From a virus: a stretch of 34,615 nt of DNA. The stretch lies in the IMG/VR virus record IMGVR_UViG_3300031418_000062; one strand, 5' to 3'. Shown piece after piece: positions 10,672 through 34,615 of this stretch. Within the stretch, counting starts at the first letter, position 1. Each line of letters starts with the position of its first letter. The position numbers and the translations under genes are program-made. The notes beneath the pieces are model-generated. The model was not told where the DNA came from and ran no database searches. It was given only the letters and a program-made list of their open reading frames with translations.

Positions 10672-10716
10672 CGCACCTGGTCGACGGCCAGCTGCTCGAG
10701 CTGGCCGGATCCGCGC
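10669..10716 (+). repeat. Dispersed palindrome-rich element, copy A (starts at the S stop codon, fills the S/methylase convergent gap)
   Basis: ctcaccaggTAGCGCAcctggtcgacggccagctgctcgagctggccggatcc shares ctcaccaggt and cctggtcgacggccagctgctcgagct with copy C. Confidence 0.8.
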
Positions 10717-10717
10717 C

Positions 10718-11470
10718 TTACGCGGCCAGGCGGTCGGGCACCGCGGCCAGGCGCTCCGACGCATCGGCATGGATGCGCGGGTTCATCTCACACCCCATCC
10801 AATTCAAGCCGGCTTCTTTCGCAGCCACCAGGAAGGTGGCCGATCCGGCGAACAGGTCGAGCACGGTCCCGCCCTCGGGCACCAGGCGCACCACCTCGCG
10901 CGCCAGGTCGACCGGCTTTTCCGTCAAGTGCCGTTTTGGAAAGTCCAGCTTGCACTGGAAAACGCCAGGCAGGTACACCTCCCGGTCGGGCATCGCGCCC
11001 TTGCTGGCCCAGACGATGAATTCCGCCTGTTGCTTGAAGCCGCTGCGGCGCGGCCGTGCGCGCCCTGTCGTCTTGTCCCAGACCGCGATCCCGCGCAGCG
11101 TGAAGCCGGCGGCCTGGATCACGTCGGTGAGCGCCGGCAGCTGCCGCCAGTCGATGAAGCACACCACCATGCCGCTGCTTTTCAACGCCCGGTATGCACC
11201 CGCCAGCCAGGTCTGGCACCAGAACAGCCAGGAACGCTGGTCCATGTTGTCGAAGTCGAAGTCCTCGTAGAGGTCCTGGGATGCGGCATTGAGATACTTC
11301 TTGCTGGTGGTGGCAGCGCGCGCAGCGCGATGCAGGCCGCCGGAACAATAGGGCGGGTCGGTTAGTAGCATATCGATCGAGCTGGCCGGCAGCTGTCGCA
11401 CGAATTCCACCGCATCGACCTGATGCAGGCGGTTCAAAAGGGGGGTGGTTTGTTCGGTTTGTTCAATCAC
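10718..11470 (-). CDS. Orphan beta-class DNA methyltransferase (N6-adenine or N4-cytosine)
   Basis: Motif IV (LLTDPPYCSGG) precedes motif I (VLDLFAGSATFLVAAKEAG), the beta-class order. No adjacent endonuclease is present. The start is uncertain: GTG at 11470, or upstream GTG/ATG as far as 11620. Confidence 0.85.
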   Translation of the reverse strand: MIEQTEQTTPLLNRLHQVDAVEFVRQLPASSIDMLLTDPPYCSGGLHRAARAATTSKKYLNAASQDLYEDFDFDNMDQRSWLFWCQTWLAGAYRALKSSGMVVCFIDWRQLPALTDVIQAAGFTLRGIAVWDKTTGRARPRRSGFKQQAEFIVWASKGAMPDREVYLPGVFQCKLDFPKRHLTEKPVDLAREVVRLVPEGGTVLDLFAGSATFLVAAKEAGLNWMGCEMNPRIHADASERLAAVPDRLAA

Positions 11471-11574
11471 GATAAGGGTCCAGGTTGCGTAGGGATCGGC
11501 GCGGAAGCGTCCCCCCGGACTCGCGCTCTGTAGGTATTTTCGACGCCAGCCGGCGCCGGTAGAACCTCGAGCTG

Positions 11575-11595
11575 TTGTGGCCGCTGCGGGCACAA
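11575..11595 (+). promoter_or_regulatory. Late-promoter activator dyad TTGTG-N11-CACAA upstream of V
   Basis: ttgtggccgctgcgggcacaa followed by ccgc, the same spacing and flank as the FI copy. A perfect 9-bp-stem hairpin (gccccgtgc...gcacggggc, 11601-11625) lies between it and the V start. Confidence 0.55.
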
Positions 11596-11640
11596 CCGCC
11601 GCCCCGTGCATCGCGCGCACGGGGCCTGCACCATGGCGGC

Positions 11641-19439: not shown

Positions 19440-22400
19440 ATGTCGAACGATCTGAGATTACGAGTGCTGTTCAACCTGGCCGACAGCATCACCGGGCCCC
19501 TGCGCAATATCCGGCAAGGGAACGACGACGTCGCCAAGTCTTTGCGGGAAACTCGGAACCGCCTCAAGGAGCTGAACAAGACCCAGGCCGAGATCGGCGC
19601 GCTGCGCGAGCTGCGCACCGGCATGGCGGCCACGGCCGGCGAGCTGAACGCGGCCAAGACCCGGGTGGCGTCGCTCGCCCAGGCGCTCCACGCAAACGGC
19701 CCGCCAACCCAGGCAATGGTCCGGGACTTCGAACAGGCCCGGACGGCCGCGCGCGCGCTGCAGGACCAGCACCGCCAGCAATACGTCCAGCTGCATCAAC
19801 TCCGCACCGGCCTGGCCGGCGCCGGCATCGACACCCGCAACCTGTCCCAGCACGAGCGCGACCTGCGCCAGAACATCCAGGCCACCACGGCCGACATGCA
19901 ACGCCAGCAGCAACAGCTGGCCGAGCTGGCCGCGCGCGAGCGCCGCCTGGGCGAGGCCCGGGCGCGCATGCAGCGCACCCAGGAGACCGCCGGCAAGATG
20001 ACCAGCACCGGCGCGGGCATGGCTGCAGCCGGCGCCGTCACCACGGCCGCGCTGTCGGTCCCTGTGACCGAATACGCGAAGGCCGAGGACTCGGCCACCC
20101 AGCTGTCCGGCGCCCTGATGCGCGCCGGCGGCGTGGTCCCTCCCGAGTTCGAGAAAATCAACGCCCTGGCCATGAAGCTGGGCGATCGCCTGCCCGGCAC
20201 CACGTCGGACTTCCAGGACATGATGACGATGCTGACCCGCCAGGGCATCTCGGCGCAGACCATCCTGGGCGGCATGGGCGAGGCGGCCGCGTACCTGGGC
20301 GTGCAGCTGAAAAAGACGCCGGCAGAGGCGGCCGAGTTCGCGGCCAAGATGCAGGACGCGACCAAGACCACCGAAAAGGACATGCTCAGCCTGATGGACG
20401 TGATTCAGCGGACCTTCTACCTGGGCGTGGACGATAACAACATGCTCAACGGCATGGCCAAGCTCAGCCCGGCCATGGACACGATCAAGATGAAGGGCCT
20501 GGAAGGGGCCAAGGCCGTGGCGCCGCTGCTGGTGATGGCCGACCAGTCCGGCATGGCCGGCGAAGCCGCGGGCAACGCCTACCGGAAGATCTTCCAGATG
20601 GGCATGGACAAGAAGAAGATCGACAAGGCCAACAAGGGTCTGGCGCCGGCGCAGCGCCTGGACTTTACCGATGGAAAGGGCGAATTCGGCGGCTTTGACA
20701 AGATGTTCAAGCAGCTGGACAAGCTCAAGGGCCTGACCACGCAAAAGCGCCTGTCTGTCCTCAAGGAAGTTTTCGGGGATGATGCCGAAACGCTGCAAGT
20801 CGTCTCCCTGCTGATGGAGAAAGGCGTCGACGGCTACCGCGAGGTGCAGGGCAAGATGGCCGCCCAGGCCTCCCTGCAGGAGCGCGTCAACCAGCAGCTC
20901 GGCACCCTGAAAAACCTGTGGGAAGCTGCCGGCGGCACCTTCACCAACACCATGGTGGCCTTCGGTGAAACGCTCGCCCCCGAATTGAAGGCAACCACGG
21001 AATGGCTCGGAGACACGGCCCAGAAGATGGGCGCATGGGCGCGCGAGAACCCGCGTTTGTCTGGTGGCCTGATGAAAACCGTGGCCGCCCTCGGGATCCT
21101 GCTCACCGTCGGCGGCGCGCTGCTGGTGATGCTCGGGACCGTCCTCGGCCCCCTGGCAATGCTCAAGTTCAGCCTGACCACCCTCGGCATGCAGGGCGGC
21201 CTCATGGCGAACGTGTTCCGGATGGCCATATCACCGCTCAAGCTGCTGGGCCAGGCCGTGCTATTCATCGGCCGCGCCATGCTGATGAACCCCATCGGCC
21301 TGGCAATCACCGGGATCGCCGTCGCCGCCTTCCTGATCTACAAGTACTGGGGCCCCATCAAGGAATTCTTTGGCGGTCTGTGGGACCAGGTGAAAGCCGC
21401 GTTCAACGGCGGCATCGGCGCGATCGGCGCCCTGCTGGTGAACTGGTCGCCAGCCGGGCTGTTCTACCGAGCCTTCGCCGGCGTGATGTCCTATTTCGGC
21501 ATCGACATGCCTTCCAAGCTGTCGCAGTTCGGCGCGAACATCATCACCAGCCTGGCCACCAGCCTGGCCCCGATCGGCGCCTTTGTCGGCGGATTGTGGG
21601 ACCAGATAAAGACGGCTTTCAACGGGGGCATCGGCTCGATCGGCGCCCTCCTGGCTAACTGGTCCCCGGTCGGGCTGTTCTACCAGGCCTTCGCCGCGGT
21701 GATGTCCTATTTCGGGATCGACCTGCCGGCCAAGTTCTCGACCTTCGGGGCGAACATCATCGCCGGCCTGGTCAACGGCATCACCGGCGGCCTGGGATCC
21801 GTCCAGACCGCAATCACGGCGGCCGCCGACAGCACGGTGGCCTGGTTCAAGGAAAAACTGGGAATCAAGAGCCCGAGCCGGGTGTTTGGCGAGCTGGGCG
21901 GCTTCATCAGCCAAGGCGCCGCTGTCGGGATCGAAGGCGAGCAGGGAAAGGTAGCCAAGGCGATCGCGGCCCTGGCAACGGTCGCCTCGGCCACGTTCAC
22001 GCCTGCTGTCACTGTTGCCGCCCAGCTGCCCACGACGCCGCCGGCGCAGCTGCAGCCGGTGGTGGCCGCGGCCAAGTCGCCGGCAGCGGCACCGGCACCG
22101 GCCCAGCTGCAGCCGGTGGTGGCCGTGGCGAAGTCGCCGGCAGCAGCGCCGGCACCGACCCAGCTGCAGCCAATGGCGGCCGCGGCCAAGTCGCCGGCAG
22201 CGGCACCGGCACCGGCCCAGCTGCAGCCAATGGCGGCCGCGGCCAAGTCGCCGGCAGCGGCGGCGGCGCCGGCCCAGCTGCAGCCGGTGGTGGCCGTGGC
22301 GAAGTCGCCGGCAGCGGCGGCGGCGCCGGCCCAGCTGCAGCCAGTGGCGGCCGCGGCGAAGTCGCCGGCAGCGGCGGCGCCGCCGGCCCAGCTGCAGCCG

Positions 22401-22925
22401 GTGGTGGCCGTGGCGAAGTCGCCGGCAGCGGCACCGGCACCGACCCAGCTGCAGCCAATGGCGGCCGCGGCCAAGTCGCCGGCAGCGGCGGCGGCGCCGG
22501 CCCAGCTGCAGCCGGTGGTGGCCGTGGCGAAGTCGCCGGCGGCGGCGGCGCCGGCCCAGCTGCAGCCGGTGGTGGCCGTGGCGAAGTCGCCGGCGGCGGC
22601 GGCGGCGCCGGCCCAGCTGCAGCCAGTGGCGGCCGCGGCGAAGTCGCCGGCAGCGGCGGCGCAGCCGGTGACGGCCGCGGCCAAGGCGTCGATCGTCAAC
22701 CCGGTCCCGATCGACACGCGCGCATCCGTGCTCACGCCGAAGGCCGGCGCAGGATCCGCAGCTGGCGGCGCCGGCGCTGCAGGTGGCGGGAATAACACGT
22801 ACACCATCAACATCAACCCCGCTCCAGGGATGGACCCGGCCGCGATCGCGCGCGCCGTGGCCGCTGAACTGGACCGCCGCGAGCGCGCGAAGCAGTCGCG
22901 CATCGGCTCGCGCCTGACCGATTGA
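19440..22925 (+). CDS. T: Tail tape measure protein (P2 gpT family) with an internal 72-aa duplication and an 11-copy 19-aa tandem repeat
   Basis: 1161 aa. It has a helical N-terminus, hydrophobic central segments and sits between E/E' and U. Confidence 0.92.
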   Translation: MSNDLRLRVLFNLADSITGPLRNIRQGNDDVAKSLRETRNRLKELNKTQAEIGALRELRTGMAATAGELNAAKTRVASLAQALHANGPPTQAMVRDFEQARTAARALQDQHRQQYVQLHQLRTGLAGAGIDTRNLSQHERDLRQNIQATTADMQRQQQQLAELAARERRLGEARARMQRTQETAGKMTSTGAGMAAAGAVTTAALSVPVTEYAKAEDSATQLSGALMRAGGVVPPEFEKINALAMKLGDRLPGTTSDFQDMMTMLTRQGISAQTILGGMGEAAAYLGVQLKKTPAEAAEFAAKMQDATKTTEKDMLSLMDVIQRTFYLGVDDNNMLNGMAKLSPAMDTIKMKGLEGAKAVAPLLVMADQSGMAGEAAGNAYRKIFQMGMDKKKIDKANKGLAPAQRLDFTDGKGEFGGFDKMFKQLDKLKGLTTQKRLSVLKEVFGDDAETLQVVSLLMEKGVDGYREVQGKMAAQASLQERVNQQLGTLKNLWEAAGGTFTNTMVAFGETLAPELKATTEWLGDTAQKMGAWARENPRLSGGLMKTVAALGILLTVGGALLVMLGTVLGPLAMLKFSLTTLGMQGGLMANVFRMAISPLKLLGQAVLFIGRAMLMNPIGLAITGIAVAAFLIYKYWGPIKEFFGGLWDQVKAAFNGGIGAIGALLVNWSPAGLFYRAFAGVMSYFGIDMPSKLSQFGANIITSLATSLAPIGAFVGGLWDQIKTAFNGGIGSIGALLANWSPVGLFYQAFAAVMSYFGIDLPAKFSTFGANIIAGLVNGITGGLGSVQTAITAAADSTVAWFKEKLGIKSPSRVFGELGGFISQGAAVGIEGEQGKVAKAIAALATVASATFTPAVTVAAQLPTTPPAQLQPVVAAAKSPAAAPAPAQLQPVVAVAKSPAAAPAPTQLQPMAAAAKSPAAAPAPAQLQPMAAAAKSPAAAAAPAQLQPVVAVAKSPAAAAAPAQLQPVAAAAKSPAAAAPPAQLQPVVAVAKSPAAAPAPTQLQPMAAAAKSPAAAAAPAQLQPVVAVAKSPAAAAPAQLQPVVAVAKSPAAAAAPAQLQPVAAAAKSPAAAAQPVTAAAKASIVNPVPIDTRASVLTPKAGAGSAAGGAGAAGGGNNTYTININPAPGMDPAAIARAVAAELDRRERAKQSRIGSRLTD
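22041..22664 (+). repeat. In-frame tandem repeat, 11 copies of 57 nt (one copy 54 nt), encoding PAQLQPVVAVAKSPAAAAA-type units inside the tape measure gene
   Basis: Units start at 22041, 22098 and so on, with period 57. The copies differ by a few substitutions (V/M, A/P). Confidence 0.95.
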
Positions 22926-23346: not shown

Positions 23347-24360
23347 ATGCGACAGCCTACCCCTGATTTCGTCGTCACCCTGGACGGCAAGAACCTCAGC
23401 AGTAAGCTGGCCCCGCGCCTTATCAGCCTGACGATCAACGAATGCCGCAGCGATGAAGCCGACATGCTCGACATCGTTCTCAACGACAGCGACGGCCAGC
23501 TGGCCCTGCCGTCCCGCGGCGCCGTCCTGGCCGTGTCCATGGGATGGGCTGGCCAGCCCCTGGTCGACAAGGGCACGTTCACCGTGGATGAGGTCGAGCA
23601 CAGCGGGTCCCCGGATATCCTCACCCTGCGCGCGCGCAGCGCGTCCATGACCAAGAACATGGGCACGCGCCAGGAAAAAAGCTGGCACGGTCAAACCCTG
23701 GGCGGCATCGTGAAGGCGATCGCCGGCAAGCACAGCCTCAAGCCGGTGATAGGCGACCAGCTGGGCAAGATCGTGATCCCGCACATCGACCAGACCCACG
23801 AAAGCGACATGGCCTTCCTGACGCGCCTGGCGAAACGGTACGACGCCGTTATGACTGTGAAGGAAGGCAACCTGCTGTTCATGCCGATCGGCCAGGGCGA
23901 GACCGCCAGCGGGAAAAAGCTGCCGGTCATCAGCATCACGCGCAAGGACGGCGACCAGCACCGGTACCACGTTGCCGACCGCGAGAACTACGAGGGCGTG
24001 CGCGCCTACTGGCACAACGGGAAGAAGGGCAAGCGCAAGGAGGTGATCGTGGGTGGCGAGGTGAACCGCAACACCAAGACGCTGCCCGAGACCTACGCCA
24101 CCGAAGCCGAGGCCAAGGCGGCGGCGACGTCGGAATACAAGCGGGTCAAGCGCGGCCAGGCGGTGATGGGCTATACCCTCGCCCTGGGCCGGCCCGAGAT
24201 CCGGCCCGAGCTGCAGGTATCGGTCAGCGGCTTCAAGCCCGAGATCGACGGCACTACCTGGCTGGTCCAGCGCGCAAGCCACACCATTTCGGATGGCGGC
24301 CTGTCTACATCGCTCGAGCTCGAGACGAGCGAAGCCGCAGACCAGGGCAAGACCAAGTAG
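23347..24360 (+). CDS. D: Tail protein / late control protein D (P2 gpD family)
   Basis: 337 aa, starting TAAATG-adjacent to U. PDFVVTLDGKNLSSKLAPRLISLTI...DEADMLDIVLND is the gpD signature. Confidence 0.9.
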   Translation: MRQPTPDFVVTLDGKNLSSKLAPRLISLTINECRSDEADMLDIVLNDSDGQLALPSRGAVLAVSMGWAGQPLVDKGTFTVDEVEHSGSPDILTLRARSASMTKNMGTRQEKSWHGQTLGGIVKAIAGKHSLKPVIGDQLGKIVIPHIDQTHESDMAFLTRLAKRYDAVMTVKEGNLLFMPIGQGETASGKKLPVISITRKDGDQHRYHVADRENYEGVRAYWHNGKKGKRKEVIVGGEVNRNTKTLPETYATEAEAKAAATSEYKRVKRGQAVMGYTLALGRPEIRPELQVSVSGFKPEIDGTTWLVQRASHTISDGGLSTSLELETSEAADQGKTK

Positions 24361-24470
24361 CGCGCCGGCGCCGCGGCCGCGCACCTGGTGCGCACCTGGT
24401 CGACGTCCAGCTGCTCGAGCTCGAGGCCTGCGCGATCGCCGCCGGCGCCGGCCGGCACCGATCACGGCCC
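24358..24470 (+). repeat. Dispersed palindrome-rich element, copy B (starts at the D stop codon)
   Basis: TAGCGCGCCGGCGCC...gcacctggtgcgcacctggtcgacgtccagctgctcgagctcgagg..gcgatcgccgcc is about 90 percent identical over ~80 nt to the reverse complement of the 138-bp tandem unit at 33641-34054. Confidence 0.85.
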
Positions 24471-24687
24471 AGGGTGAAGCAGCGTCCACAACTTCACCAG
24501 GTAATACCCGGCCCTCATGAGCTGGGAGAGGCAGGCACTGGCCTGGCGGGCAATTCTCAACTTTCGCATATCGTTTCCTTTCGGGTTGAACCGATACGAT
24601 GACCTCGATCGGCGCCGGATTCCTCTGGTGGGTTTTCCGGCAAGGAAATTCTGCTGTCACGACGGCGCGGTACGTATAGCCGGCGGC

Positions 24688-24822
24688 TGTCTAACAAACC
24701 ACGGTTTTTTAGACACTCAACAAGAAAGGGCCAACCGGCCCTTTTTTCACACTGGAAGTGTCTAAAAACCCTGTATAGTTTTCTATGTCTAACAAACCAC
24801 GTTGAAACTTAATTTTTATACA
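24688..24822. promoter_or_regulatory. Cluster of TGTCTA-type half-sites (candidate res/operator site) upstream of the recombinase operon
   Basis: A 28-bp near-perfect palindrome, TGTCTAACAAACCacGGTTTTTTAGACA, lies at 24688-24715. Further half-sites are TGTCTAAAA (24759), TGTATAGTT (24772), TGTCTAACAAACCACG (24786, an exact repeat of 24688-24703) and an inverted TGTATAAAA (24814-24822). Confidence 0.55.
24725..24747 (+). terminator. Short GC hairpin plus T6 (possible terminator of the tail operon), embedded in the TGTCTA cluster
   Basis: aaagggcc aacc ggccctttttt. The A-run upstream could make it bidirectional. The stem is only 5-6 bp. Confidence 0.5.
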
Positions 24823-24838: not shown

Positions 24839-25075
24839 ATGGATGTTCGTGATATTGCTCAGCAGTGGCGGGTGGCGAAGGGCTATGAGGGCCGCGGTGG
24901 TGTCGTTGTGGTGTTCGACGGTGTCGCAGGCGGTTGGGTAGATTGTCTTCGCAATCCGGAGCACTGGCGCATTGGTAATTACGCGGTCGATGAGTCCGGC
25001 AAGGTATGGATCGCCAGTGGCGTCCAGGTGACGGATGACGATACGGCATCGTCGTGGAAGCCTGTAGAGCAATGA
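24839..25075 (+). CDS. Hypothetical protein (78 aa)
   Basis: ORF with aaaggg upstream and an ATGA overlap with the next ORF. No recognisable motif. Confidence 0.5.
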   Translation: MDVRDIAQQWRVAKGYEGRGGVVVVFDGVAGGWVDCLRNPEHWRIGNYAVDESGKVWIASGVQVTDDDTASSWKPVEQ

Positions 25076-25527
25076 AAACCGTTCTTATGATGCCGCGCCG
25101 CTTCGGCCGGACCGCGATCGCGCGCGCGCTGCGCGCCACCGGCGACGACCAGCTGACGCCCGAGCAGTACCGGGCGCTGTTTCAAGGCGAATTCTCGATC
25201 GAGGCCAAGGACCGCGAACTGGTGGCCCTGGCCGAGGAGTACGACCGCCGCACCGAGCTATACGACCGCACGGTCTGCACCGGCCCGATCGGACCGGATG
25301 GGATCATGCCGGCGACGCCGGCCGAGCTCGCGGCGATCAACAGGCACGCCGACCAGGTGCGGCGCGAGCTGGTCGACCGCGCGATGCGCGCCGGCTTCAC
25401 CGCGGCGCAGTTCAAGGAAGCGATGATGCACCAGGTGCGGCAAGGCCCCGCGGCCGTGGCCGCGCAGGCGGCGCGCCAGGATCGCCCCCCGACCTGGATC
25501 GGGATGGACTTCGGGAAGGAGGCGTAA
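25072..25527 (+). CDS. Hypothetical protein (151 aa)
   Basis: Translationally coupled at both ends (ATGA at 25072, TAATG at 25525-25529) with high GC3. No recognisable motif. Confidence 0.55.
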   Translation: MKTVLMMPRRFGRTAIARALRATGDDQLTPEQYRALFQGEFSIEAKDRELVALAEEYDRRTELYDRTVCTGPIGPDGIMPATPAELAAINRHADQVRRELVDRAMRAGFTAAQFKEAMMHQVRQGPAAVAAQAARQDRPPTWIGMDFGKEA

Positions 25528-26171
25528 TGCGACACCCGACCGCCACCAACAACCTGGACATCATCACCGGAGGCCTGCTGATCGGCTACGCCCGGGTGTC
25601 CACGGTCGACCAGAACCTGGACCTGCAGCGGGACGCCCTGCAGCGCGCCGGGTGCGGCCAGATCTATGAGGACAAGGCCAGCGGCCGCGCGAAGTCGGGC
25701 CGGCCCGAGCTGGCGGCCGTGCTGCGCGCGCTGCGCGCCGGCGACACCCTGGTGGTCTGGCGCCTGGACCGCCTGGCGCGATCGCTGGTCGACCTGGTGC
25801 AGATCATCAACGAGCTGGGAGAAAAGGGGATTGGCTTCAAGAGCCTGACGGAACAGATCGACACCTCGAGCGTGCAAGGCCGGTTGTTCCTGGGCGTGTT
25901 CGCAGCCATGGCGCAGTATCAGCGCGACGTCATCCACGAAAACACGATGGAGGGATTGAAGGCAGCTCGAGCACGCGGTCGCATGGGCGGCCGGCGGTCG
26001 AAGCTGGGAGAACAGGAGATCCGGGAGATCGAGGCGCTGTTGAAGGATCCGCAGATCACCGTGGTGGACGTGGCCAAGCGCTACGGGGTGAGCCGGGCCA
26101 CCATTTACAACGCCCTGGGGAAGAAACAGCCTACCGCACAGCTCGCACTACCGAGTGGCAATAGCCAATGA
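25527..26171 (+). CDS. Small serine recombinase (resolvase/invertase family)
   Basis: IGYARVSTVDQNLDLQRDAL (catalytic Ser motif), LVVWRLDRLARS and a C-terminal HTH (VAKRYGVSRATIYNAL). At 214 aa it is the size of a Tn3/Hin-class enzyme, not a large serine integrase. Confidence 0.93.
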   Translation: MRHPTATNNLDIITGGLLIGYARVSTVDQNLDLQRDALQRAGCGQIYEDKASGRAKSGRPELAAVLRALRAGDTLVVWRLDRLARSLVDLVQIINELGEKGIGFKSLTEQIDTSSVQGRLFLGVFAAMAQYQRDVIHENTMEGLKAARARGRMGGRRSKLGEQEIREIEALLKDPQITVVDVAKRYGVSRATIYNALGKKQPTAQLALPSGNSQ

Positions 26172-26778
26172 TCTGCAGCCGGTCCCGATCGGCGGCCGGC
26201 ACAACCTCCGCGACATAGCCCGGGCTATCGCACGACATACGCAGCGATCCATCCACCATGTGCTGGATCCTGCGGAAATAAGCATGGGTATCATCGAAGC
26301 GCACCAGGTAAAGCCCATCTGCAGACTGCTGAGCGCAATTCACCAGGACCACGTGCCCTTCGGGTAGCGTGTCCGCCATAGCATCCCCCACCACCCGCAC
26401 GGCGATAACGTCACCAGCTTCCAGTCGCTCCTGGTCAAGCCATTGCCGCGGCACGTACCAGGATTGTTCCTCGAACGCCTTCGGCCAGTCCATCGCATCC
26501 AATAATGGCACCTCGACCATGTGGGCCGGGATCGGGGCCGGCGCCGCGCCGCCGGCTTCCTTTGTGCCCCTTCCCAGAATCAGCCAGTCCAGGCTGATAT
26601 TCCGATCGAGCGCAAAAATGACGCATTCGTCATAGGGGATTGAGCCCCGATTCTTTAGCACGCTGATAAAGCCGCGCGACCCACCAAGCACCTCGGATAA
26701 CTCTTTGTCTAATTGGATGCCAAGCACAGTTTTCATTCTGTCGATTATGTCTGTTACGGATGGCTTATTTTGTTCCAT
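26131..26778 (-). CDS. cI: CI-like immunity repressor: N-terminal HTH plus a degenerate S24 (LexA/CI/UmuD-type) C-terminal domain
   Basis: The N-terminus LGIQLDKELSEVLGGSRGFISVLKNRGSIP is HTH-like. The C-terminus aligns with the S24 fold but reads GDAM instead of G(D/N/M)SM, and AYFRRI instead of FTVKKL. The 3' end overlaps the recombinase gene by 41 nt. Confidence 0.85.
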   Translation of the reverse strand: MEQNKPSVTDIIDRMKTVLGIQLDKELSEVLGGSRGFISVLKNRGSIPYDECVIFALDRNISLDWLILGRGTKEAGGAAPAPIPAHMVEVPLLDAMDWPKAFEEQSWYVPRQWLDQERLEAGDVIAVRVVGDAMADTLPEGHVVLVNCAQQSADGLYLVRFDDTHAYFRRIQHMVDGSLRMSCDSPGYVAEVVPAADRDRLQIIGYCHSVVRAVR

Positions 26779-27156
26779 TTTTGAGCTTTACATTGCAAAA
26801 GGTTGTCCGAAGTTGCTGCGCGGAACCGGAGTAGAGCGTACAATTTACGGAGCGCAATGTTGGCTTACAAAATGTTACTTTTATTGTAATCACGCATTGC
26901 AAATTGTAGTTCTGACATCCACTTTCTTGCCATTTGTCACTGAGAAACACTGTACGGATATACAGTATTATTGAGCCTTACACAGTGATCGCGGTTGGCT
27001 GTTGAGAGTGGGAAACGACGCCGGTGCGCGAGGGGATTATCTACCGAACAGCATCTATCGCCTATGAAAAAGGCGTAACGGCATAGCAATAATGCCGCAA
27101 AGCAATAAAAGGAACGGTTTGGACTTGTCCGCCAGGGATCGCCAGGAATTACACAA
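26779..27156. promoter_or_regulatory. Immunity switch region (divergent promoters/operators), AT-rich relative to the genome
   Basis: 378 nt with no credible ORF. CATTGCAAA repeats at 26791 and 26895, with an inverted cattgcg at 26853-26859. Also the inverted repeat TTACAA/TTGTAA (26865-26889), cactgt/acagtg (26948/26982) and the LexA box. Confidence 0.6.
26950..26965. promoter_or_regulatory. LexA (SOS) box CTGT-N8-ACAG in the cI/ogr switch region
   Basis: cACTGTacggatatACAGTa matches 16 of 20 positions of the E. coli-type consensus TACTGTATATATATACAGTA, with both CTGT and ACAG arms perfect. Confidence 0.65.
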
Positions 27157-27414
27157 ATGAGCCTGAGAATTACAATCTGTTGCCCACATTGCGAATCGAA
27201 AGCAAACGCGCGCACCAGCAAGGCGCTTTCCGCTACCTTGAGGGAAATAGTTTACGTTTGTGTAGACCCTGAGTGCGGACATACCTACGTTGCGCAGCTT
27301 GAGGTGGTTCGTACTCTTTCGCCGTCGGCAAAACCTAAAAAAGACATCCGGCTCCCGATTTCGCCACACGTAATGGCGATGTTGAGAGAACAGCTGGAGT
27401 TATTACCCGCGTGA
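27157..27414 (+). CDS. ogr: Ogr/Delta-family zinc-finger late-gene activator
   Basis: CPHCESKANARTSKALS...REIVYVCVDPECGHTY has the CxxC...RTS...C....C pattern and spacing of P2 Ogr / P4 Delta. Confidence 0.85.
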   Translation: MSLRITICCPHCESKANARTSKALSATLREIVYVCVDPECGHTYVAQLEVVRTLSPSAKPKKDIRLPISPHVMAMLREQLELLPA

Positions 27415-27846: not shown

Positions 27847-30624
27847 ATGGCTAATATTGACGAAGTAAAACGGATCGTAAACCCTCGGCTGCATGACCTG
27901 GCCTCCAGGCTCGGCATCAAGCAGGGAAAGGGTGGCGACGATGCGCTGTATCACTCGCCGCACCACCCCGACAAGAATCCCTCCCTGTCGATCTACATCG
28001 ACCATCCCAAGCACGGCACCGGCTGGAAGGACCACAGCGGCGACGCCGGCGGCTCCTGCATCGACATGGTGATGTTCACCCAGGGCTGCAGCGCCTCCGA
28101 TGCCCTGAAATACCTGCACCAGGAATACGCGATCCCCTTCGACACTCCGGATAAGCCGGCCCAGGAAAACAAGAGCATGGTCGAGTACATTGCCGACCGC
28201 TGCATCGCCGCCCGCGAGAAGGTGCGGGACTACCTGCAGGGCCGCGCGATCGGCGCCGGCGCGATCGATGCCGCGCTGCGCGCCAAGACCCTGGGATTCA
28301 ACGAATGGACCAGCCCGAAGAAACAACCAGGTGAGGTGGGCTATGGCGGCCCGGCTGCGGCCTTCATCGTGCGCTCGCCCGACACCAGCCAAGTGGTGGC
28401 CGTCGACATGCGCTTCCTGGATCCGGCCCAGAATGGCGACGTCAAGACGCAGGCCCAGGGCGAGAAGGACGGCTACTACTGGACCGCCGACCCCCGCAAG
28501 CTCGAGCGCGCCCAGCGCGTGTACGTGGTCGAAAGCCCGATCAACGCCCTGTCGATCGACACCTGCAGCATCCCCAAGACTGCAGCGATCGCCCTCCGCG
28601 GCCTCAGCAACGCGTCGACCATCGACCTGGCCTTCCTGCAGGGCAAACAGGTGGTGATCTGCATGGACAACGACGAGCCCTTCCCGGACGGCCACCAGCG
28701 CGCCGGCCAGCGTCCCGGCCCAGAGGCCGCCTGGATCCTGTACGAGCGCCTGACCGCCATCAACATCAGCGCAGTCCTGGTCGACCAGGAGGAGTGGGAC
28801 AAGGTTGAAGGCGACGAGAACGGCGGCAAGCCGATCAACGACGTGAACGACTACCTGCAGGCGCGCGGCGCGCAGAAGCTGGCCAAGGCCCTGGACACCT
28901 ACGAGACCTGGCTGATCGCCGGCATGGCCGGCAACGTCTCGCGCAAGGGCCGGGCGCGCGTCTACCTGCCAGCACACGATTACGCCCAATACTGGAAATT
29001 CCGGCCGCACCTGGACTTCACCAAGTACATCGCCAGGATGGACGAAAACAAGGAAACCGGCGACGAGACCCCGATCTACCACGACCTGTGCGGTTTCCGG
29101 GTCGCATCCCTGAGCCGGGTATCGGTCGCCAGCTCGACCGCCACCATGACCGGCGATCGGGACCACTCCCCTACCGTGTACTTTTCCGTGACGGTCCAAG
29201 TTCCCCGCCACGGCCCCGAGCTGGTCCGCAAGGTCCTGATGGACGACCAGCTGCACAACACGAACACCTGGACGAAGTTCGGCCCGATCTGGAAGCCGGC
29301 CGAATTCTCGCGCATGGTGAGCATCCTCGAGCGCACCGCGGATCTCGGCGCACGCAAGGCCGCCAACTTCGTGGGCCTGGCCTGGCTCGACGGCCGCCTG
29401 GCTGTCAACGAGGGGCCGGACTGCTATTTCACCGAAGCCGAGAAGCAATGCACGTATCACAACCTGACGTTCCCTTCCGGGCCGACCGCGAACGCGCGCA
29501 GGGTCATCAAAGCGTATCAGGCCACCTACACCAGCAACGCCGGCGCGATCCCCCTGGTCTGGGCACTCGGCGGCCACCTCAAGGCCTTCCTGGGATTCTG
29601 GCCACACATCACGATGCAGGCCGACAAGGGCGCCGGCAAGTCCACCCTGGTGAAGCGCCTCGAGCGCTCCCTGGCCTTCACCATGTTCTCGGGCCAGAGC
29701 CTGCAGACGGAATTCCGCCTGATGACCAGCATCAGCTACACCAGCCATCCGGTTGGCTGGGAGGAGCTGAGCGCCCGCCGCACCGACGTGATCGACAAGG
29801 CCGTGGCGATCCTGCAGGAGTCGTATCAGTACACCACTACCAAGCGCGGCTCCGAAATGACCGAGTTCCTGCTGTGCGCGCCGGTGATGCTGGCCGGCGA
29901 GGACGTGCCCGTTAAGAGCCTCACCGGCAAGGTGGTCCGGACGGATCTGACCAACAAGGCCAACGGCTTCATGGCCGACGACCTGCCCCACTTCCCAGTG
30001 CGCCAGTGGCTGGAATTCCTGACCAAGCTCGACAAGGCCACCGTGCTGGAGAAGTACGCCGGGCTGCGCGAGTACTGCCTGAAAAACAGCCGCGCCGGCG
30101 GCGACGACAGCGGCGCCAGGCGCATGGCCGGCAACTACGCGGCCGTGCTGCTGGCCTGGGGACTCCTGGCCGAGTTCGCCGGCATGGACTATTCCGAAGG
30201 TGCATTCGGCAAGGACCTCCTGGCCGAGATGAACGCCCATATTTCGGAGACCAGCAGCGACCGCTCGCCGTGGGTCTGGATCATGGAAACGGCGCTGTCC
30301 GAGATCGACGCCAGCAACTTCAAGCACCCGTACAAGTTCGAAGTGGTGGACGGCAAGGATTGCCTGCTGGTGCGGCCGCAGCACATCATGGACCACCTGT
30401 CGAGCTCCTCGAGCCTGCGCGAGAAGTGGAATTCTCTGCCGGTCAAGACCGCTGCAGTGTTCAAGCGTCAGATGATGTCGGCCGGGATCCTGTTGCTGGA
30501 CGAAGCCGGGAAGCCCAAGGAACTGGAGCGGACCATTTTGATGCGCCGCGTTGGCCACCTCTCCGCGATCCCGCTCGAGGCCTTGAACAACTTCGGCCTG
30601 TCGGTCGGCTGGCGGAACGAGTAG
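27847..30624 (+). CDS. Bifunctional primase-helicase-like replication protein (degenerate zinc-finger region, toprim domain, P-loop NTPase)
   Basis: 925 aa. Toprim motifs VYVVESPINALS and VVICMDNDEP, and Walker A ADKGAGKST. The overall layout resembles P4 alpha / DUF927-type phage-plasmid primase-helicases. Confidence 0.85.
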   Translation: MANIDEVKRIVNPRLHDLASRLGIKQGKGGDDALYHSPHHPDKNPSLSIYIDHPKHGTGWKDHSGDAGGSCIDMVMFTQGCSASDALKYLHQEYAIPFDTPDKPAQENKSMVEYIADRCIAAREKVRDYLQGRAIGAGAIDAALRAKTLGFNEWTSPKKQPGEVGYGGPAAAFIVRSPDTSQVVAVDMRFLDPAQNGDVKTQAQGEKDGYYWTADPRKLERAQRVYVVESPINALSIDTCSIPKTAAIALRGLSNASTIDLAFLQGKQVVICMDNDEPFPDGHQRAGQRPGPEAAWILYERLTAINISAVLVDQEEWDKVEGDENGGKPINDVNDYLQARGAQKLAKALDTYETWLIAGMAGNVSRKGRARVYLPAHDYAQYWKFRPHLDFTKYIARMDENKETGDETPIYHDLCGFRVASLSRVSVASSTATMTGDRDHSPTVYFSVTVQVPRHGPELVRKVLMDDQLHNTNTWTKFGPIWKPAEFSRMVSILERTADLGARKAANFVGLAWLDGRLAVNEGPDCYFTEAEKQCTYHNLTFPSGPTANARRVIKAYQATYTSNAGAIPLVWALGGHLKAFLGFWPHITMQADKGAGKSTLVKRLERSLAFTMFSGQSLQTEFRLMTSISYTSHPVGWEELSARRTDVIDKAVAILQESYQYTTTKRGSEMTEFLLCAPVMLAGEDVPVKSLTGKVVRTDLTNKANGFMADDLPHFPVRQWLEFLTKLDKATVLEKYAGLREYCLKNSRAGGDDSGARRMAGNYAAVLLAWGLLAEFAGMDYSEGAFGKDLLAEMNAHISETSSDRSPWVWIMETALSEIDASNFKHPYKFEVVDGKDCLLVRPQHIMDHLSSSSSLREKWNSLPVKTAAVFKRQMMSAGILLLDEAGKPKELERTILMRRVGHLSAIPLEALNNFGLSVGWRNE

Positions 30625-30725
30625 CGCGCCGGCCGGCGCCGACCTGGTGGGCCAGCTGCTGCAGCGGCTCACCAGGTCGACGGCCAGCTGCTCGAGCTCG
30701 AGGCGATCGCCGTCGAGTCGGATGC
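30622..30725 (+). repeat. Dispersed palindrome-rich element, copy C (starts at the primase-helicase stop codon)
   Basis: TAGCGCGCCGGCCGGCGCCgacctggtgggccagctgctgcagcgg ctcaccaggtcgacggccagctgctcgagctcgaggcgatcgcc. Both sub-motifs of the 138-bp unit are present, in the reverse-complement orientation. Confidence 0.85.
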
Positions 30726-30874
30726 GGGACACATAGGAAATTTATTGCACCGCCATAAACGCGTGGGTGCAAATGTTGGCGATAATACAGCGGCCGCCTT
30801 GCGCGGCCCGCTTCACTGAATATGCTGCCAGGCCGCCCTGGTGGCTCCCCGACAGTTGCTGCATAGGCGACTGT

Positions 30875-30902
30875 GATCACCTTTGTGGCCGCCTCGCGCG
30901 GC
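30875..30902 (+). terminator. Rho-independent terminator of the early/replication operon
   Basis: gtggccgc ctcgc gcggccac followed by T7. Confidence 0.8.
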
Positions 30903-30910
30903 CACTTTTT

Positions 30911-31216
30911 TTACCTGTTCGCCTCGCGTTCCTCGGCCGCGATGAAGCGCGAGACCGCCAGCGCGAACGCTGCCGCACGGCTGAGGCCAAGCGCGGCGGC
31001 CTTGTTGTCCAGTGCCGCCAGGATATGCGCGTCGATCGTCAAGCTGATCGGCTTCTTTCTGCCGCCTTTCGGAATCAACGCCGGCGCCGGCGTCGACGTC
31101 GCACTCGGCTTAGCGTCCGGCGCGGCGCCGATGAGGGCCGCGACCTGATCTTCGGTTACGCCTGGCTTGAGCCCTGCCGGATTGCTACCTGGGCGGGGCA
31201 AGATTTTCGATACCAT
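30911..31216 (-). CDS. parG: Ribbon-helix-helix (ParG/CopG-like) partition adaptor / centromere-binding protein
   Basis: 101 aa immediately downstream of ParA. It has a disordered Pro/Ala-rich N-terminus and then KPISLTIDAHILAALDNKAAALGLSRAAAFALAVSRFI, an RHH pattern. Confidence 0.65.
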   Translation of the reverse strand: MVSKILPRPGSNPAGLKPGVTEDQVAALIGAAPDAKPSATSTPAPALIPKGGRKKPISLTIDAHILAALDNKAAALGLSRAAAFALAVSRFIAAEEREANR

Positions 31217-31250
31217 TTCTATATTCCTTTAATATCAACCTGATGTTGTG
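31217..31250. promoter_or_regulatory. TTCTATATTC + TAATATCAAC box between parA and parG
   Basis: ttctatattcctttaatatcaacctgatgttg parallels ttctatattcagttgatatcaacttactgtag upstream of parA. Confidence 0.5.
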
Positions 31251-31256
31251 TTGAGA

Positions 31257-31916
31257 CTACTTTGACCTGTCCGCGAATGCGCGAATGTCCTCGAGCAGGT
31301 TGTACATTTCGTTGCGGGCGTCCGGTGGTGCGCCCTTGAATTCGCTGATATGACGGCCGGCCGCGCTGGCATGGGAGAACGCCTTGCGATCGCCCAGCCT
31401 GCATTTGCTGATCTCAAAACCAAACTGAGACACATATTCAATCGACGCCTCGTTGTCGGCCTCTTGACCAGCTGGATCCGCCTTGTTCAGGAAAGCCAAC
31501 ACCTTGAAGTCTTTCACCTGCTGCATTTCCCGGGCCAGATTCACTGTATTTTCGAATGCCCACACATCGAACGAGCGTGGAGCAAACGGAAACACCATCA
31601 CGTCACACAGCGACAACGCGGCCCGCATCGCGCCTGAATCCTTTGCCCCCACGTCGATAACCACGTCATCGAAGTTCCCCGCCTGCAGGAGCACCTGGGC
31701 ACGCATGGACGGGCCATCCGTCAGCGGCACCGATGGGATCCCAGGCAAATCCGCCAGGATCCGGGCGGTAAGGGCCAGGTGCATGGAGGTCTGTTCATCG
31801 TCCCCATCGACCGCCCAAACCCTACGCCCGGCCAGGGACAAGCCGGTCACCAGTTGCACCGAGGTGGTGGACTTGCCAACGCCGCCCTTTTTATTCGCTA
31901 CTGCATAGATTGTCAT
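31257..31916 (-). CDS. parA: ParA-family partition ATPase (small, type Ib-like, no N-terminal HTH)
   Basis: The deviant Walker A AVANKKGGVGKSTT is at the extreme N-terminus. VWAVDGDDEQTS is also present. 219 aa. Confidence 0.9.
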   Translation of the reverse strand: MTIYAVANKKGGVGKSTTSVQLVTGLSLAGRRVWAVDGDDEQTSMHLALTARILADLPGIPSVPLTDGPSMRAQVLLQAGNFDDVVIDVGAKDSGAMRAALSLCDVMVFPFAPRSFDVWAFENTVNLAREMQQVKDFKVLAFLNKADPAGQEADNEASIEYVSQFGFEISKCRLGDRKAFSHASAAGRHISEFKGAPPDARNEMYNLLEDIRAFADRSK

Positions 31917-31951
31917 GTTGTGGCCTTTCGTTTATAGCGGTTCGATTGTAA

Positions 31952-31975
31952 TTCTATATTCAGTTGATATCAACT
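31952..31975. promoter_or_regulatory. TTCTATATTC + 14-bp palindrome AGTTGATATCAACT upstream of parA (operator/centromere candidate)
   Basis: A perfect palindrome at 31962-31975, located 46 nt upstream of the parA start. Confidence 0.55.
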
Positions 31976-31983
31976 TACTGTAG

Positions 31984-32343
31984 TTATGATTGCGTTTCAG
32001 TATTTTCGACCAGGATAGCCAATAGTTCACGCTGACGCGCCAGGGCCTCAGCGATCGCGTGGCGGACATGCATGACCTCGCCCTGCCGACCGTTGCCGTT
32101 CTCGATCTGGCGCGCGACCTCGGCGGCATCATCCAGGGTGAAGCGAGTCGCCAGCTGGGGCAGCTCGGGGCGTGGGTTGGTCGCTTCGCCTTCGACCACA
32201 TCGAAGGCCAGTGGCAGACCCTGGCATACCACCACATAGGCCTCGGGCAGCGGCGCGTCGAACAACGCGTCAAGGGTCATTTCGTAGCCGGTGATCGCGG
32301 CGCGGGTTTTCTCCAGCATGTTGTTCCAATCGGTCATGTTCAT
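31984..32343 (-). CDS. Hypothetical protein (119 aa) upstream of parA
   Basis: ORF with high GC3, co-oriented with parA/parG. No recognisable motif. Confidence 0.55.
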   Translation of the reverse strand: MNMTDWNNMLEKTRAAITGYEMTLDALFDAPLPEAYVVVCQGLPLAFDVVEGEATNPRPELPQLATRFTLDDAAEVARQIENGNGRQGEVMHVRHAIAEALARQRELLAILVENTETQS

Positions 32344-32663: not shown

Positions 32664-32751
32664 GTATCTCTACATCATGTTGATATCAACATGAGATTGA
32701 ATAAATATTTATATCGTATCTACTTGATGTTAATACCATGTTGATATTAAG
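32664..32751. promoter_or_regulatory. AT-rich cluster of TTGATATCAA-type boxes (centromere/origin candidate)
   Basis: An 18-bp perfect palindrome CATGTTGATATCAACATG (32676-32693), then cttgatgttaatac (32723) and CATGTTGATATTAAG (32737-32751). The preceding GTATCT..TAC context is duplicated (32664 and 32715). Confidence 0.55.
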
Positions 32752-32880
32752 CGACACTAGCGCCCGCCTCGAGCCATGCCCAGCACCTGGTCGACCCCGC
32801 GGCCGCCTATGAAACCGGGCCAAGACGGCGCCGGCGGCCGCCGGTTTCCACTCGCCAGCAGCAGGGCACAGGCAGCACAG

Positions 32881-33256
32881 AAAACCCGGGGATTTATGCC
32901 CTCTTGTGACGTAAGTCATTGATTCTTGAGCAACTACCATCCCCGAACTACCCCCGAAAATCCCCGGATATGCTGAGTTTTTCCACGGCGGGCCTCATTT
33001 CTTCCATGGTTGTGGCCGGCGCCGTCCTCCTACTTCTTTCTTTTTTTTAGCTATGAAAAGAGAGAGGAATAGAGGGAAGGAAAGAATTTCGCGCATCCCC
33101 GACCCGCACCCGCATTTCCCCGACTTTTCCCCGCTGCCTAAATTTTCATCCCCGGGTTCCCCGACCTTTCCACGGCCTTTTCGTGGATGGTGGGGGATGG
33201 AAATTTCTTAGGAATCAGGTACTTACGCCAACATCCACGGCATCCCCCGATCCCCG
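32881..33256. repeat. Iteron-like cluster of (A/T)TCCCCG(A/G) motifs (at least 10 copies) flanking a polypyrimidine/polypurine dyad
   Basis: TCCCCG occurs at 32940, 32961, 33096, 33117, 33128, 33149, 33158 and 33251. CCCCCG occurs at 32951 and 33244, with an inverted copy at 32881-32895. TCCACGG occurs at about 32982, 33168 and 33234. The Py tract is 33025-33048 and the Pu tract 33055-33086. Confidence 0.7.
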
Positions 33257-33640
33257 GCGTGCGCTGCCTGGGGGGTGTTCGGGTTCCTTTTTCTGAGCCA
33301 TAGGGTTTTGCCCCTCGCTAGAACGCATCAAAACCGCCTACAGGCGCATCAAACCGCATCAGGTGACGCGGCCAGCAAATCGGCTGAAGGCCGCACCAGG
33401 CCTGTTTCCGGCCGGCTCCTGGGGCTGCATTAGAACCAGGCCCCCAAGCGAAGCCCGGAGGCGGGGAGGGGCCTCCGCAGCAGCGGGGCAGGCGGCCTTG
33501 CCTTGGGGATCCCCCTCCAGGAGCCCCAGGGGGCCGCCCAGGGCGTCGCAGGCGCTGCGCACGGTGCGCGGACGCTCTGCGGCACCTCCAACCGTGCGCG
33601 CGTCATAGAGGCCCGTTTGATGCGTCTGGCCAGGTGCATT

Positions 33641-34054
33641 GGCGGCGATCGCACGCCTCGAGCTCGAGCAGCTGGCCGCCGACCAGGTTGCGCACCAGGT
33701 GCGGCCGCGGCGCCGGCGGGATCCTGCAGCTGCAGCAGCTGGTCGACCAGGTGGATCCGACCCGGGCTGGCCAGCGCCGGCGGCGATCGCGCGCCTCGAG
33801 CTCGAGCAGCTGGACGCCGACCAGGTTGCGCACCAGGTGCGGCCGTGGCGCCGGCGGGATCCTGCAGCTGCAGCAGCTGGTCGACCAGGTGGATCCGGCC
33901 CGGGCTGGCCAGCGCCGGCGGCGATCGCGCGCCTCGAGCTCGAGCAGCTGGACGCCGACCAGGTTGCGCACCAGGTGCGGCCGCGGCGCCGGCGGGATCC
34001 TGCAGCTGCAGCAGCTGGTCGACCAGGTGGATCCAGCCCGGGCTGGCCAGCGCG
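33641..34054. repeat. Three tandem copies of a 138-bp unit built from perfect palindromes
   Basis: Units start at 33641, 33779 and 33917 and differ by only a few substitutions. Each contains GCGATCGC, CTCGAGCTCGAG, CAGCTG, CTGCAGCTGCAG, CTGGTCGACCAG, GGATCC, CCCGGG and TGGCCA. Confidence 0.95.
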
Positions 34055-34060
34055 CCGAGC

Positions 34061-34088
34061 GTGTTTGTGTTTGTGTTGTTGTTTGTGT
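34061..34088. repeat. GT-rich microsatellite (gtgtttgtgtttgtgttgttgtttgtgt)
   Basis: Low-complexity TG/TTG tract directly abutting the tandem array. Confidence 0.85.
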
Positions 34089-34129: not shown

Positions 34130-34168
34130 CGCATCCTGGTGCGTAGTACTGCGCATCCTGGTGCATAG
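34130..34168. repeat. Two 17-bp direct repeats CGCATCCTGGTGC(G/A)TAG spaced 22 bp start to start (iteron-like)
   Basis: 34130-34146 and 34152-34168. A related cgcatcctcggcgc lies at 34447-34460. Confidence 0.75.
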
Positions 34169-34488
34169 GTGTAGTAAAAGCCAACGGGACACCTGCCCGC
34201 GCTCCCGCTTGGGTTGCGCACCGATTTCCTACGGAAACCGGCACGCCCGGTTACGCGGGTGAACCCGTAAAATCAAAACCCGAAAACCCCGAAATGCAAC
34301 TAACCCATGACTCGGCCAGCGACACAGGCAGGCCACCAGGTTGGAGGCCGCCCTACAGGCCGTTGATCTGACGGCAGGGGCGATTTGAGTCCGAGGACCG
34401 ATGCCGAAGGCGAGGGAGCGAGGATGGCCCGTTAGGGCCACCCCTGCGCATCCTCGGCGCTCCTCCAGAGCGTCCGGTTGTTAGCGGG

Positions 34489-34615
34489 TGATCTGCTGGT
34501 GTTGAGTCTACAAGGGAGGCTGTGGCCTCCCGTACCTTGTGCGCCGCGCTTGCGCGGGGCAGTCTGGTTCTATTCTCCAGGCTGAACAACGGCCGGCCGG
34601 CCTGAAGTGGCGCGC
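34489..34615. repeat. Terminal exact repeat, copy 2 (identical to 1-127)
   Basis: Same comparison as for copy 1. Confidence 0.95.

Follow-up and report, generated by a model that had tools for sequence, protein, structure and literature searches.

Three genes on the plus strand of a P2-like phage genome, S, D and the gene of a Toprim-domain primase, are each followed, directly after the stop codon, by a short palindrome-rich element. Sequence comparison gives good support to the view that these elements arose secondarily, by shortening and rearrangement, from the phage's own tandem repeat, an array that lies near its partition operon. The genome is the IMG/VR record IMGVR_UViG_3300031418_000062, a stretch of 34,615 nt with 64.5% GC that is called the window throughout, and L-numbers (L001, L030, L116 etc.) are labels of the related loci or contigs that were compared with it. 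The main basis of our reading is the homology of the copies to the array, their restriction to one lineage, their recent insertion, the ancestral state of the stop codons, stem-loops at two of the three sites and a slow rate of substitution. As to their function, we tentatively favour, with a probability of roughly 40%, the view that the copies would act as stem-loop barriers at operon ends.

The array (33641-34053) comprises 3.0 units of 138 bp that are 97% alike according to Tandem Repeats Finder, and the near-identical assembly L001 has two units against three in the window. It is placed on the minus strand, on which its orientation matches that of the gene-end copies. Each unit is made up of segment A (~80 nt, with a conserved core) and segment B (~58 nt), with GCGCCGGCGG junction motifs between them. 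A 24-mer core, GGTCGRCGKCCAGCTGCTCGAGCT, is common to all copies and occurs six times in the window, three times at gene ends on the plus strand and three times in the array on the minus strand, against an expectation of 0 in 100 dinucleotide-preserving shuffles. Across 15 aligned copies, the best preserved stretch is a core of ~37 nt, GCGCACCTGGTCGACGNCCAGCTGCTCGAGCTCGAGG. The array holds 15 six-base palindromes per 100 nt, and the array together with the D copy 15-18, against a background of 3.1 (standard deviation 2.7). As a detector this palindrome density proved unspecific, with Ala/Gly/Pro-rich coding stretches of relatives scoring equally high, and the ~18-fold excess of ACCWGGT (42 sites against 2.3 in dinucleotide shuffles) turned out to be codon usage (xAC CTG GTx), comparable 7-mers being as frequent outside the repeats. 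An open reading frame (ORF) called on the array found only the ORF of L001, from the same phage, in a protein search of 5.8 billion protein clusters, and in L030 the unit length of 118 nt and the uneven spacing argue against a coding function of the repeat. No match to the array was found by BLAST among the PLSDB plasmids.

An initial annotation, made from the letters of the window, had described the S, D and primase operons as each ending in TAGCGC followed by a palindromic copy, and all three (at 10669, 24358 and 30622) are confirmed where it placed them. There are nine TAG stops among 35 genes, and the three that read TAGCGC are exactly those of S, D and the primase. The identity of the D copy to the reverse complement of the unit, put at about 90%, was measured as 88-89% over 90-102 nt (BLAST, E 1e-25). 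The S and primase copies reach 46.8 bits by BLAST, a score that low-complexity repeats of the tape-measure gene match too. We therefore rely on a hidden Markov model (HMM) built from the arrays of the window and L030 only, with the dispersed copies excluded, and searched in 925 kb of phage DNA. It gave 63.4 bits for the D copy (E 1.4e-17), 32.2 bits for the primase copy (E 7.5e-8) and 25.7 bits for the S copy (E 8e-6), with the best unselected background at 13.7 bits, and the similarity is thus beyond chance, as had been proposed. A site within the Rz gene at about 9381, raised at the time as a worry about background, scored 7.7 bits and is noise. Run over the element and its relatives, the model recovered the copies, and these are restricted to close phage relatives.

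Each gene-end copy is a different deletion derivative of the unit, and the 15 aligned copies differ in their start and end points within the unit. The D-end copy (24361-24461, plus strand, 101 nt) follows the stop TAG at 24358-24360 of the D gene (23347-24360, plus strand). It consists of segment A and both junction motifs, with an internal duplication of 11 nt (GCGCACCTGGT twice), and occupies the entire gap from the D stop to the stop of a convergent 32-aa ORF (24462-24560, minus strand). The S-end copy (10672-10717, plus strand, 46 nt), after the stop TAG at 10669-10671 of the S gene (10198-10671, plus strand), combines the core with a stretch of segment B and has internal deletions; it likewise occupies the entire gap from the S stop to the stop of a convergent gene, here that of an N6/N4 DNA methylase (10718-11620, minus strand). 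The primase-end copy (30625-30716, plus strand, ~92 nt) follows the stop TAG at 30622-30624 of the primase gene (27847-30624, plus strand, 925 aa) and contains a junction motif, part of segment B and the segment A core in rearranged order, with ACCTGGTG and CACCAGGT forming a stem of ~13 bp. It is situated between the primase stop and a conserved unit of promoter-like sequence, hairpin and terminator, and has no direct contact with the par operon. The only two convergent junctions with any spacer are taken up by the S and D copies, and copies are found in none of the other intergenic gaps of an approximate gene map. As initially described, all three copies run along transcription of the upstream gene and the array runs the opposite way; for three copies, a shared orientation has a probability of 0.25 by chance (n = 3).

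The distribution of the copies among relatives supports well the conclusion, drawn from sequence, that they are recent insertions after pre-existing stop codons. Gene-end copies occur only in relatives that are at least ~87% identical (L005, L009, L035 and L115) and are absent at 60-83% identity, and distant relatives that lack a copy show, at these junctions, either a gap of 2-50 nt or an ordinary terminator. A shorter copy follows D in L035, whose D is 95% identical, and none of the 38 examined relatives at 60-79% identity has one; a spacer of 7-11 nt separates the D stop from that of the convergent small ORF in L036 and L040, and other relatives have an ordinary terminator. At the S end, the copy is present in L005 and L115 (87% identical) and absent in L116 and L117 (77-79%). 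At the primase end, it is found in L009 and in none of L163-L167 (79-83%) or L161/L171. One contig, 3300031414_000077, has the S copy and lacks the primase copy, and the insertions therefore took place at different times. Dispersed copies are confined to genomes with a present or recent array, and L030 has its own degenerate copy, which fills the gap after the brnA stop.

The S protein of L116 ends at the same residue and in the same TAGCGC stop context (TAG CGCCGGCCCGGC TCA) with no repeat, and the S stop and C-terminus are therefore older than the repeat. The earlier idea that the repeat had donated the stop codons is thus rejected for S. Comparison of orthologous 3' ends shows that the C-terminus of S was not replaced, and the lengths of D and the primase vary by at most a few residues among relatives, in which their last 1-4 codons differ. 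A joint arrival of the repeat with the minus-strand cargo (the methylase gene and the small ORF) was also rejected, because L116, L117, L036 and L040 carry those genes without it. At the empty sites, motifs of the GCGCCGGC type stand beside the stop (L116 TAGCGCCGGCCCGGC, L040 TAGCCCCCCGGCGCC, L166 TGACCTGGCGCCGGCGCC), and GCGCCGGCGG, the same motif, bounds the segments of the unit and forms the left edge of the D and primase copies. A plausible course of events is that the array beside the partition operon expands and decays, and that pieces of it were copied into formerly tiny gaps right after existing operon-end stops. The short GC palindrome GCGCCGGCG probably served as the site of recombination or of template switching; it is a junction motif of the array and is present beside the stop in empty relatives, from which we infer insertion at short homology.

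The same comparisons bear on the null explanation offered by the initial annotation, that the copies are a mobile element of the host, of the type of repetitive extragenic palindromic (REP) sequences and bacterial interspersed mosaic elements (BIMEs) or of miniature inverted-repeat transposable elements (MITEs), which landed in the phage. REP sequences and BIMEs are RAYT-associated, GC-rich imperfect palindromes of proteobacterial chromosomes that follow stop codons, often between convergent genes, and their stem-loops can stabilise the upstream mRNA. They have tens to hundreds of chromosomal copies, with a unit of ~20-40 nt in which a GTAG-type head precedes an imperfect palindrome; a GTAG head is a feature of both REP and SMAG elements, the latter being the GTAG-headed elements of Stenotrophomonas. 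The phage copies resemble them in being extragenic, placed after stops, GC-rich and palindromic and in forming stem-loops in the S and primase cases, and GTAGCGC stands at the head of all three. However, the units of the array lack GTAG, the TAG of S is ancestral, only three copies exist, and these derive from the 138-bp array of the phage in its par/ori region and share no common ends. Neither inverted termini nor target duplications were found in the 15 aligned copies or in filled compared with empty sites. The copies are therefore not a discrete mobile element, and they differ from MITEs in having no terminal inverted repeats, target-site duplications or defined ends.

A search for a host family points the same way. 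We scanned 185,579 species genomes, one per species, for exact matches to the 24-nt core, a collection in which the true host may not be represented, and obtained 15 loci. Thirteen are single chance matches in unrelated high-GC genomes and two are fragments of a related phage in one Oxalobacteraceae metagenome-assembled genome (MAG). IMG/VR yielded one chance match, within coding sequence, and the metagenomes of the Joint Genome Institute (JGI) yielded 16 loci, with L030 as the only true relative. Thus, no genome with a family of the core was found in the species genomes, IMG/VR or the JGI metagenomes. The chance matches are in-phase palindromic codon pairs (CTC GAG CAG CTG GxC GAC), and such sequence therefore arises in high-GC coding DNA. 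We conclude that a host REP or MITE origin is largely refuted and give it next to no weight, and that the repeat family appears, with good support from these sequence searches, to be private to a small lineage of P2/KS14-like phage-plasmids.

Folding of the copies separates them into two kinds. When compared with shuffles, the S gap of the window gave z scores of -4.7 on the plus and -3.7 on the minus strand, and its counterpart in L115 gave -4.6 and -4.4; the primase copy gave -3.6 and -5.2 in the window and -2.0 and -2.5 in L009. At most one in 200 shuffles was as stable as the S or primase copy. The parent array unit scored +0.7 on the plus and +1.1 on the minus strand. Together with the last S codons, the S copy forms two perfect stem-loops, and a third stem-loop of 5 bp spans the methylase stop. 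In L115, two of the three substitutions in the S copy make the second stem 11 bp long instead of 9, and the first stem becomes perfect through a synonymous change in S. Compared with L115, L035 and L009, the copies carry 10 substitutions in 190 aligned nt where the third-position rate of the flanking genes predicts 31, a deficit of ~3-fold relative to third codon positions (pooled binomial P 3e-6).

We favour stem-loop barriers because of the slots that the copies occupy, the remodelling of two of them into hairpins that the parent array lacks, and the changes that lengthen a stem. The inserted copies would form symmetric barriers against read-through or convergent transcription; alternatively, they may protect mRNA 3' ends, a REP-like role for an element that is not a REP. 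They resemble intrinsic terminators in being strong GC-rich stem-loops in slots where KS14, L039 and L161 have ordinary terminators, and differ in that their stems have no U-tract.

Several points weigh against this view. A search for T-runs on both strands found no U-tract after the stem of any copy, and ordinary intrinsic terminators are present elsewhere in the phage (~24728-24748 and 30885-30905); therefore, classical termination is not supported. The D copy, which is the longest and most array-like, folds no better than shuffles (z -0.5 on both strands), nor do its version in L035 (plus strand +0.9, minus strand +0.3) and the brnA-side copy of L030 (-0.4 and 0.0). The unstructured D copy keeps its sequence, which suits recognition of sequence over structure. 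In the primase stem of L009, one pair is broken by a substitution without compensation, and the carriers of copies are too few for a covariation test of the stems. The slow substitution could stem from gene conversion with the array or from protein binding, and palindrome-rich DNA of any kind tends to form hairpins.

Variation of this kind can also be read as the trace of functionless debris, left by slippage or illegitimate recombination with an unstable array, landed where it is harmless and now decaying. Each copy is a different deletion or rearrangement with no common ends, the D copy of L035 is shorter than that of the window, and the copies are limited to close relatives. The arrays themselves vary, with two or three units of 118 or 138 bp, a decayed form in L167 and none in L164, and the gene-end gaps of relatives contain other GC-rich palindromic filler. 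Against this, the copies have fewer substitutions than third codon positions would predict (P 3e-6), the structure of the S and primase derivatives is far stronger than that of shuffles or of the parent array, and the changes in L115 lengthen a stem. Furthermore, all three available slots are filled, and L030 is an independent case. We consider the debris explanation rather unlikely.

The repeat is at home in the control region that separates the ParA/RHH partition operon from the replication and cos region. The partition operon (30911-32343, minus strand; Pfam CbiA/MipZ/ParA and RHH_1) encodes a ribbon-helix-helix (RHH) protein of 101 aa (30911-31216, minus strand), a ParA of 219 aa (31257-31916, minus strand) and a 119-aa ORF (31984-32343, minus strand). 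Upstream of the operon lie palindromes of the TTGATATCAA type, at 32676-32750 in the window, at 3763-3827 and 5001-5057 in L030 and at 30300-30395 in KS14 (L162), and the TTGATATCAA motif is kept in the window, L030, L161, L164 and KS14. The DNA-contacting beta-strand of the RHH protein, K(K/T)PISLT(I/L), is kept together with TTGATATCAA in the window, L030 and KS14. These palindromes are likely, as predicted from sequence, the operator or centromere for the RHH partner of ParA.

The relatives show what may stand beside these palindromes. The 9.6-kb contig L030, with ogr, an RHH gene, a ParA 67% identical to that of the window and a Rep_3 initiator, has four units of ~118 bp adjoining the TTGATATCAA palindromes upstream of parA. 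These are followed by an iteron-like GGGGAT region and, beyond it, two further units in opposite orientation. At the TTGATATCAA-adjacent position, L161 has a diverged repeat of ~240 nt, L164 a relic of 60 nt and KS14 a diverged GC-rich palindromic stretch of 250 nt, and L167 has a decayed array of ~230 nt at the array position of the window. In the window itself, a degenerate copy had been noted at 32757. The stretch 32757-32870, next to the par operator, is probably the relic of a first array, to judge from three short collinear matches to the plus strand of the array, and it is credible mainly because relatives carry an array or relic at the same position. On its own it is weak, with an alignment score of 31 against a shuffle maximum of 30 (mean 21.5), no core and an uncertain orientation. 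A GC-rich motif of KS14, GTCGACGAGCTGCG, was considered as a gene-end element and rejected, as it is not found at KS14 gene ends and the D end there has an ordinary bidirectional terminator.

Some further features of this region were observed. The low-GC stretch 32880-33290 contains a dozen CCCCG(A/G)/GGGGAT boxes, like the Rep_3 iterons of KS14 (AACCGGGGATTTGTACACC x4), and a Rep_3 protein is encoded in L030 and KS14 and not in the window. Directly after the array, a (GTGTTT)n microsatellite is found at 34061-34088, and L167 has (ACAAAC)n, in opposite orientation, amid its decayed array (~5385-5420). Repeats of the TGCGCATCCTGGTGCRTAG type (inverted TACGCA...TGCGTA) occur at 34130-34168 in the window, 10720-10870 in L164 and 6120-6260 in L167; in the latter two, a winged-helix gene lies immediately downstream of them. 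Its homologue in L030 is the ORF at 7152-7535, for which Pfam gives a weak RepL match, and the window has no homologue of the winged-helix gene at 412-1020. An element of 75 nt is 92% identical among otherwise diverged relatives (window 34178-34252, L030 5726-5802, L167 5565-5640) and may have a role in packaging or replication.

The main rival to stem-loop barriers holds that the copies are extra sites for a protein that binds the array, either as scattered centromeres like those of N15 or as operon-end roadblocks, stoperator-like in effect. Arrays always adjoin the ParA/RHH operon, and phages of the KS14 type are plasmid prophages. The arrays of the window and L030 share the ~37-nt GCGCACCTGGTCGACGNCCAGCTGCTCGAGCTCGAGG despite ParA proteins that are only 67% identical and other non-coding DNA that barely aligns, and this core is in every dispersed copy while the rest varies, although detection is biased here, since copies without the core would have escaped. 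The substitution rate, ~3 times below that of third codon positions, would also fit a bound site. However, the copies are missing in relatives at 60-83% identity with the same par operon (L161 and L164) and are therefore dispensable for maintenance. The contact strand of the RHH protein is conserved along with TTGATATCAA, whereas the GC-rich repeat diverges fast. Replication proteins are not common to both arrays either, as the 9.6 kb of L030 lack a primase gene in the interval from ogr to the RHH gene and Rep_3 is missing from the window. For these reasons, we regard binding sites as possible but doubtful.

Three known systems invite comparison. Cluster A mycobacteriophages (L5 and its relatives) carry more than 20 stoperators in short intergenic spaces throughout the genome, asymmetric 13-mers with the same sequence as the operator of their immunity repressor (PMC9283540). 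The phage copies share with them the dispersed intergenic placement in a temperate phage and, in three of three copies, a single orientation relative to transcription. They number only three, are 46-101 nt long and are palindrome-rich rather than asymmetric. The array HMM found no match in the divergent region between the CI-like repressor (26131-26778, minus strand) and the early genes (26778-27157), which leaves no copy at the immunity promoters. On these counts the copies do not belong to the class of stoperators, to which the initial annotation had likened them. The linear plasmid-prophage N15 has four scattered centromeres, IR1-4, which are short inverted repeats of nearly the same sequence and are bound by SopB, a protein of type Ia (PMC7205306 and references therein). 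The likeness is in palindromic sites dispersed in a predicted plasmid-prophage and related to its partition region. The differences are that the window has ParA with a small RHH protein, that its copies are heterogeneous fragments, and that they are missing in close relatives with the same par operon.

The third system is P4, in which ori and crr contain two direct repeats of 120 bp with short iterons bound by the alpha primase-helicase. The window has an array of ~120-138-bp units with three ACCWGGT per unit and a Toprim primase that we take to be P4-alpha-like, annotated in relatives as zinc-finger CHC2 primase or primase/helicase. ACCWGGT is an ordinary codon pattern, and the arrays of L030 are accompanied by Rep_3. 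The likeness is further weakened because the 9.6 kb of L030 show arrays with no primase gene from ogr to the RHH gene.

A last explanation concerns RNA. In a trans-acting antisense network, RNA of the array, or of the copies, might bind by complementarity to the transcripts of S, D and the primase at their 3' ends, or the reverse-strand equivalents might do so, and the maintenance region would thereby be linked to the late and replication operons, as is done by small antisense RNAs in the immunity of P4 and P1. Read on the plus strand, the array is complementary to the three copies, over ~100 nt at 88% for D and 24-35 nt without mismatch for S and the primase. Yet there is no promoter-like site facing the array, the arrays of L030 are found in both orientations, and Rfam at gathering thresholds yields no match. 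A structured RNA just upstream of the array was considered and rejected, as folding of an alignment of five relatives gave an unfavourable covariation term. We find the antisense network very unlikely.

The interval that separates the primase gene from the par operon contains a separate candidate small-RNA gene (30737-30912, plus strand). A promoter-like TTGCA...GATAAT precedes three hairpins, in which a comparison of the window, L009 and L163-L167 shows compensatory changes. The candidate closes with a canonical terminator (GTGGCCGC...GCGGCCAC, then T7), which directly adjoins the stop of the RHH gene, convergent with it, and there is no Rfam match.

The genome around these elements is consistent with a phage-plasmid. 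The window has an exact terminal overlap of 127 nt (1-127 = 34489-34615) and is therefore a circular assembly, of 34,488 bp. It originates from a metagenome (ENA ERZ27247390), and the near-identical assembly L001 is 34,209 nt long. Among named phages, the closest relatives are KS14, FLC5 and FLC10 of Burkholderia, at ~69% nucleotide identity. KS14, which carries ParA and a Rep protein, is a plasmid prophage by experiment (PMC3091744). The window encodes ParA and the RHH protein, and no integrase-type gene was seen in the circular genome, only a serine recombinase (25527-26171); by analogy, a life as a plasmid is probable for this phage. One uncultured Oxalobacteraceae MAG contains binned fragments of a phage with 94-96% identity to the window, which suggests the Oxalobacteraceae as the host group.

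Three observations were made on the tail region and the genes beyond it. The tape-measure gene contains eleven in-frame repeats of 57 bp (22039-22668), whose copy number differs in the near-identical L001; this could reflect either variable tail length or assemblies that are unreliable there. The convergent 32-aa ORF after D reads MRKLRIARQASACLSQLMRAGYYLVKLWTLLHPGP, is kept in L036 and L040 (MR.LR...YYLV.LW) and absent in L035, and has no Pfam match; the product could be a small toxin-like or membrane peptide. The stretch 24690-24800 has an intrinsic terminator (GGGCCAACCGGCCC, then T6) amid copies of GTCTAA(C/A)AAACC, of which there are four, in both orientations, just upstream of a gene starting at 24839. 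This arrangement, kept in L035, L039 and L041, looks like an operator set.

To conclude, the gene-end copies resemble REP elements in their likely function, but no chromosomal family of them was found in the species genomes scanned, and they can be counted as extragenic palindromic elements that derive from a phage array. If they bind a protein, this would be the second independent plasmid-prophage after N15 with scattered maintenance-related sites, here with ParA and an RHH protein. If instead the antisense reading were true, plasmid maintenance would be coupled to lytic expression, and the logic of P4 and P1 RNA immunity would extend to a P2-like phage-plasmid genome. On either view, KS14-like phage-plasmids have, in the array next to their par operator, a cis element that has so far escaped study, in a group of which some Burkholderia members, such as KS14, have been studied for phage therapy. 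On the reading that we favour, the raw material for operon-end stem-loops would arise within the phage, from an unstable array of its maintenance region and not from a mobile element of the host, and its dated stages would be the empty sites, the fresh array-like copy at D and the copies remodelled into hairpins at S and the primase.

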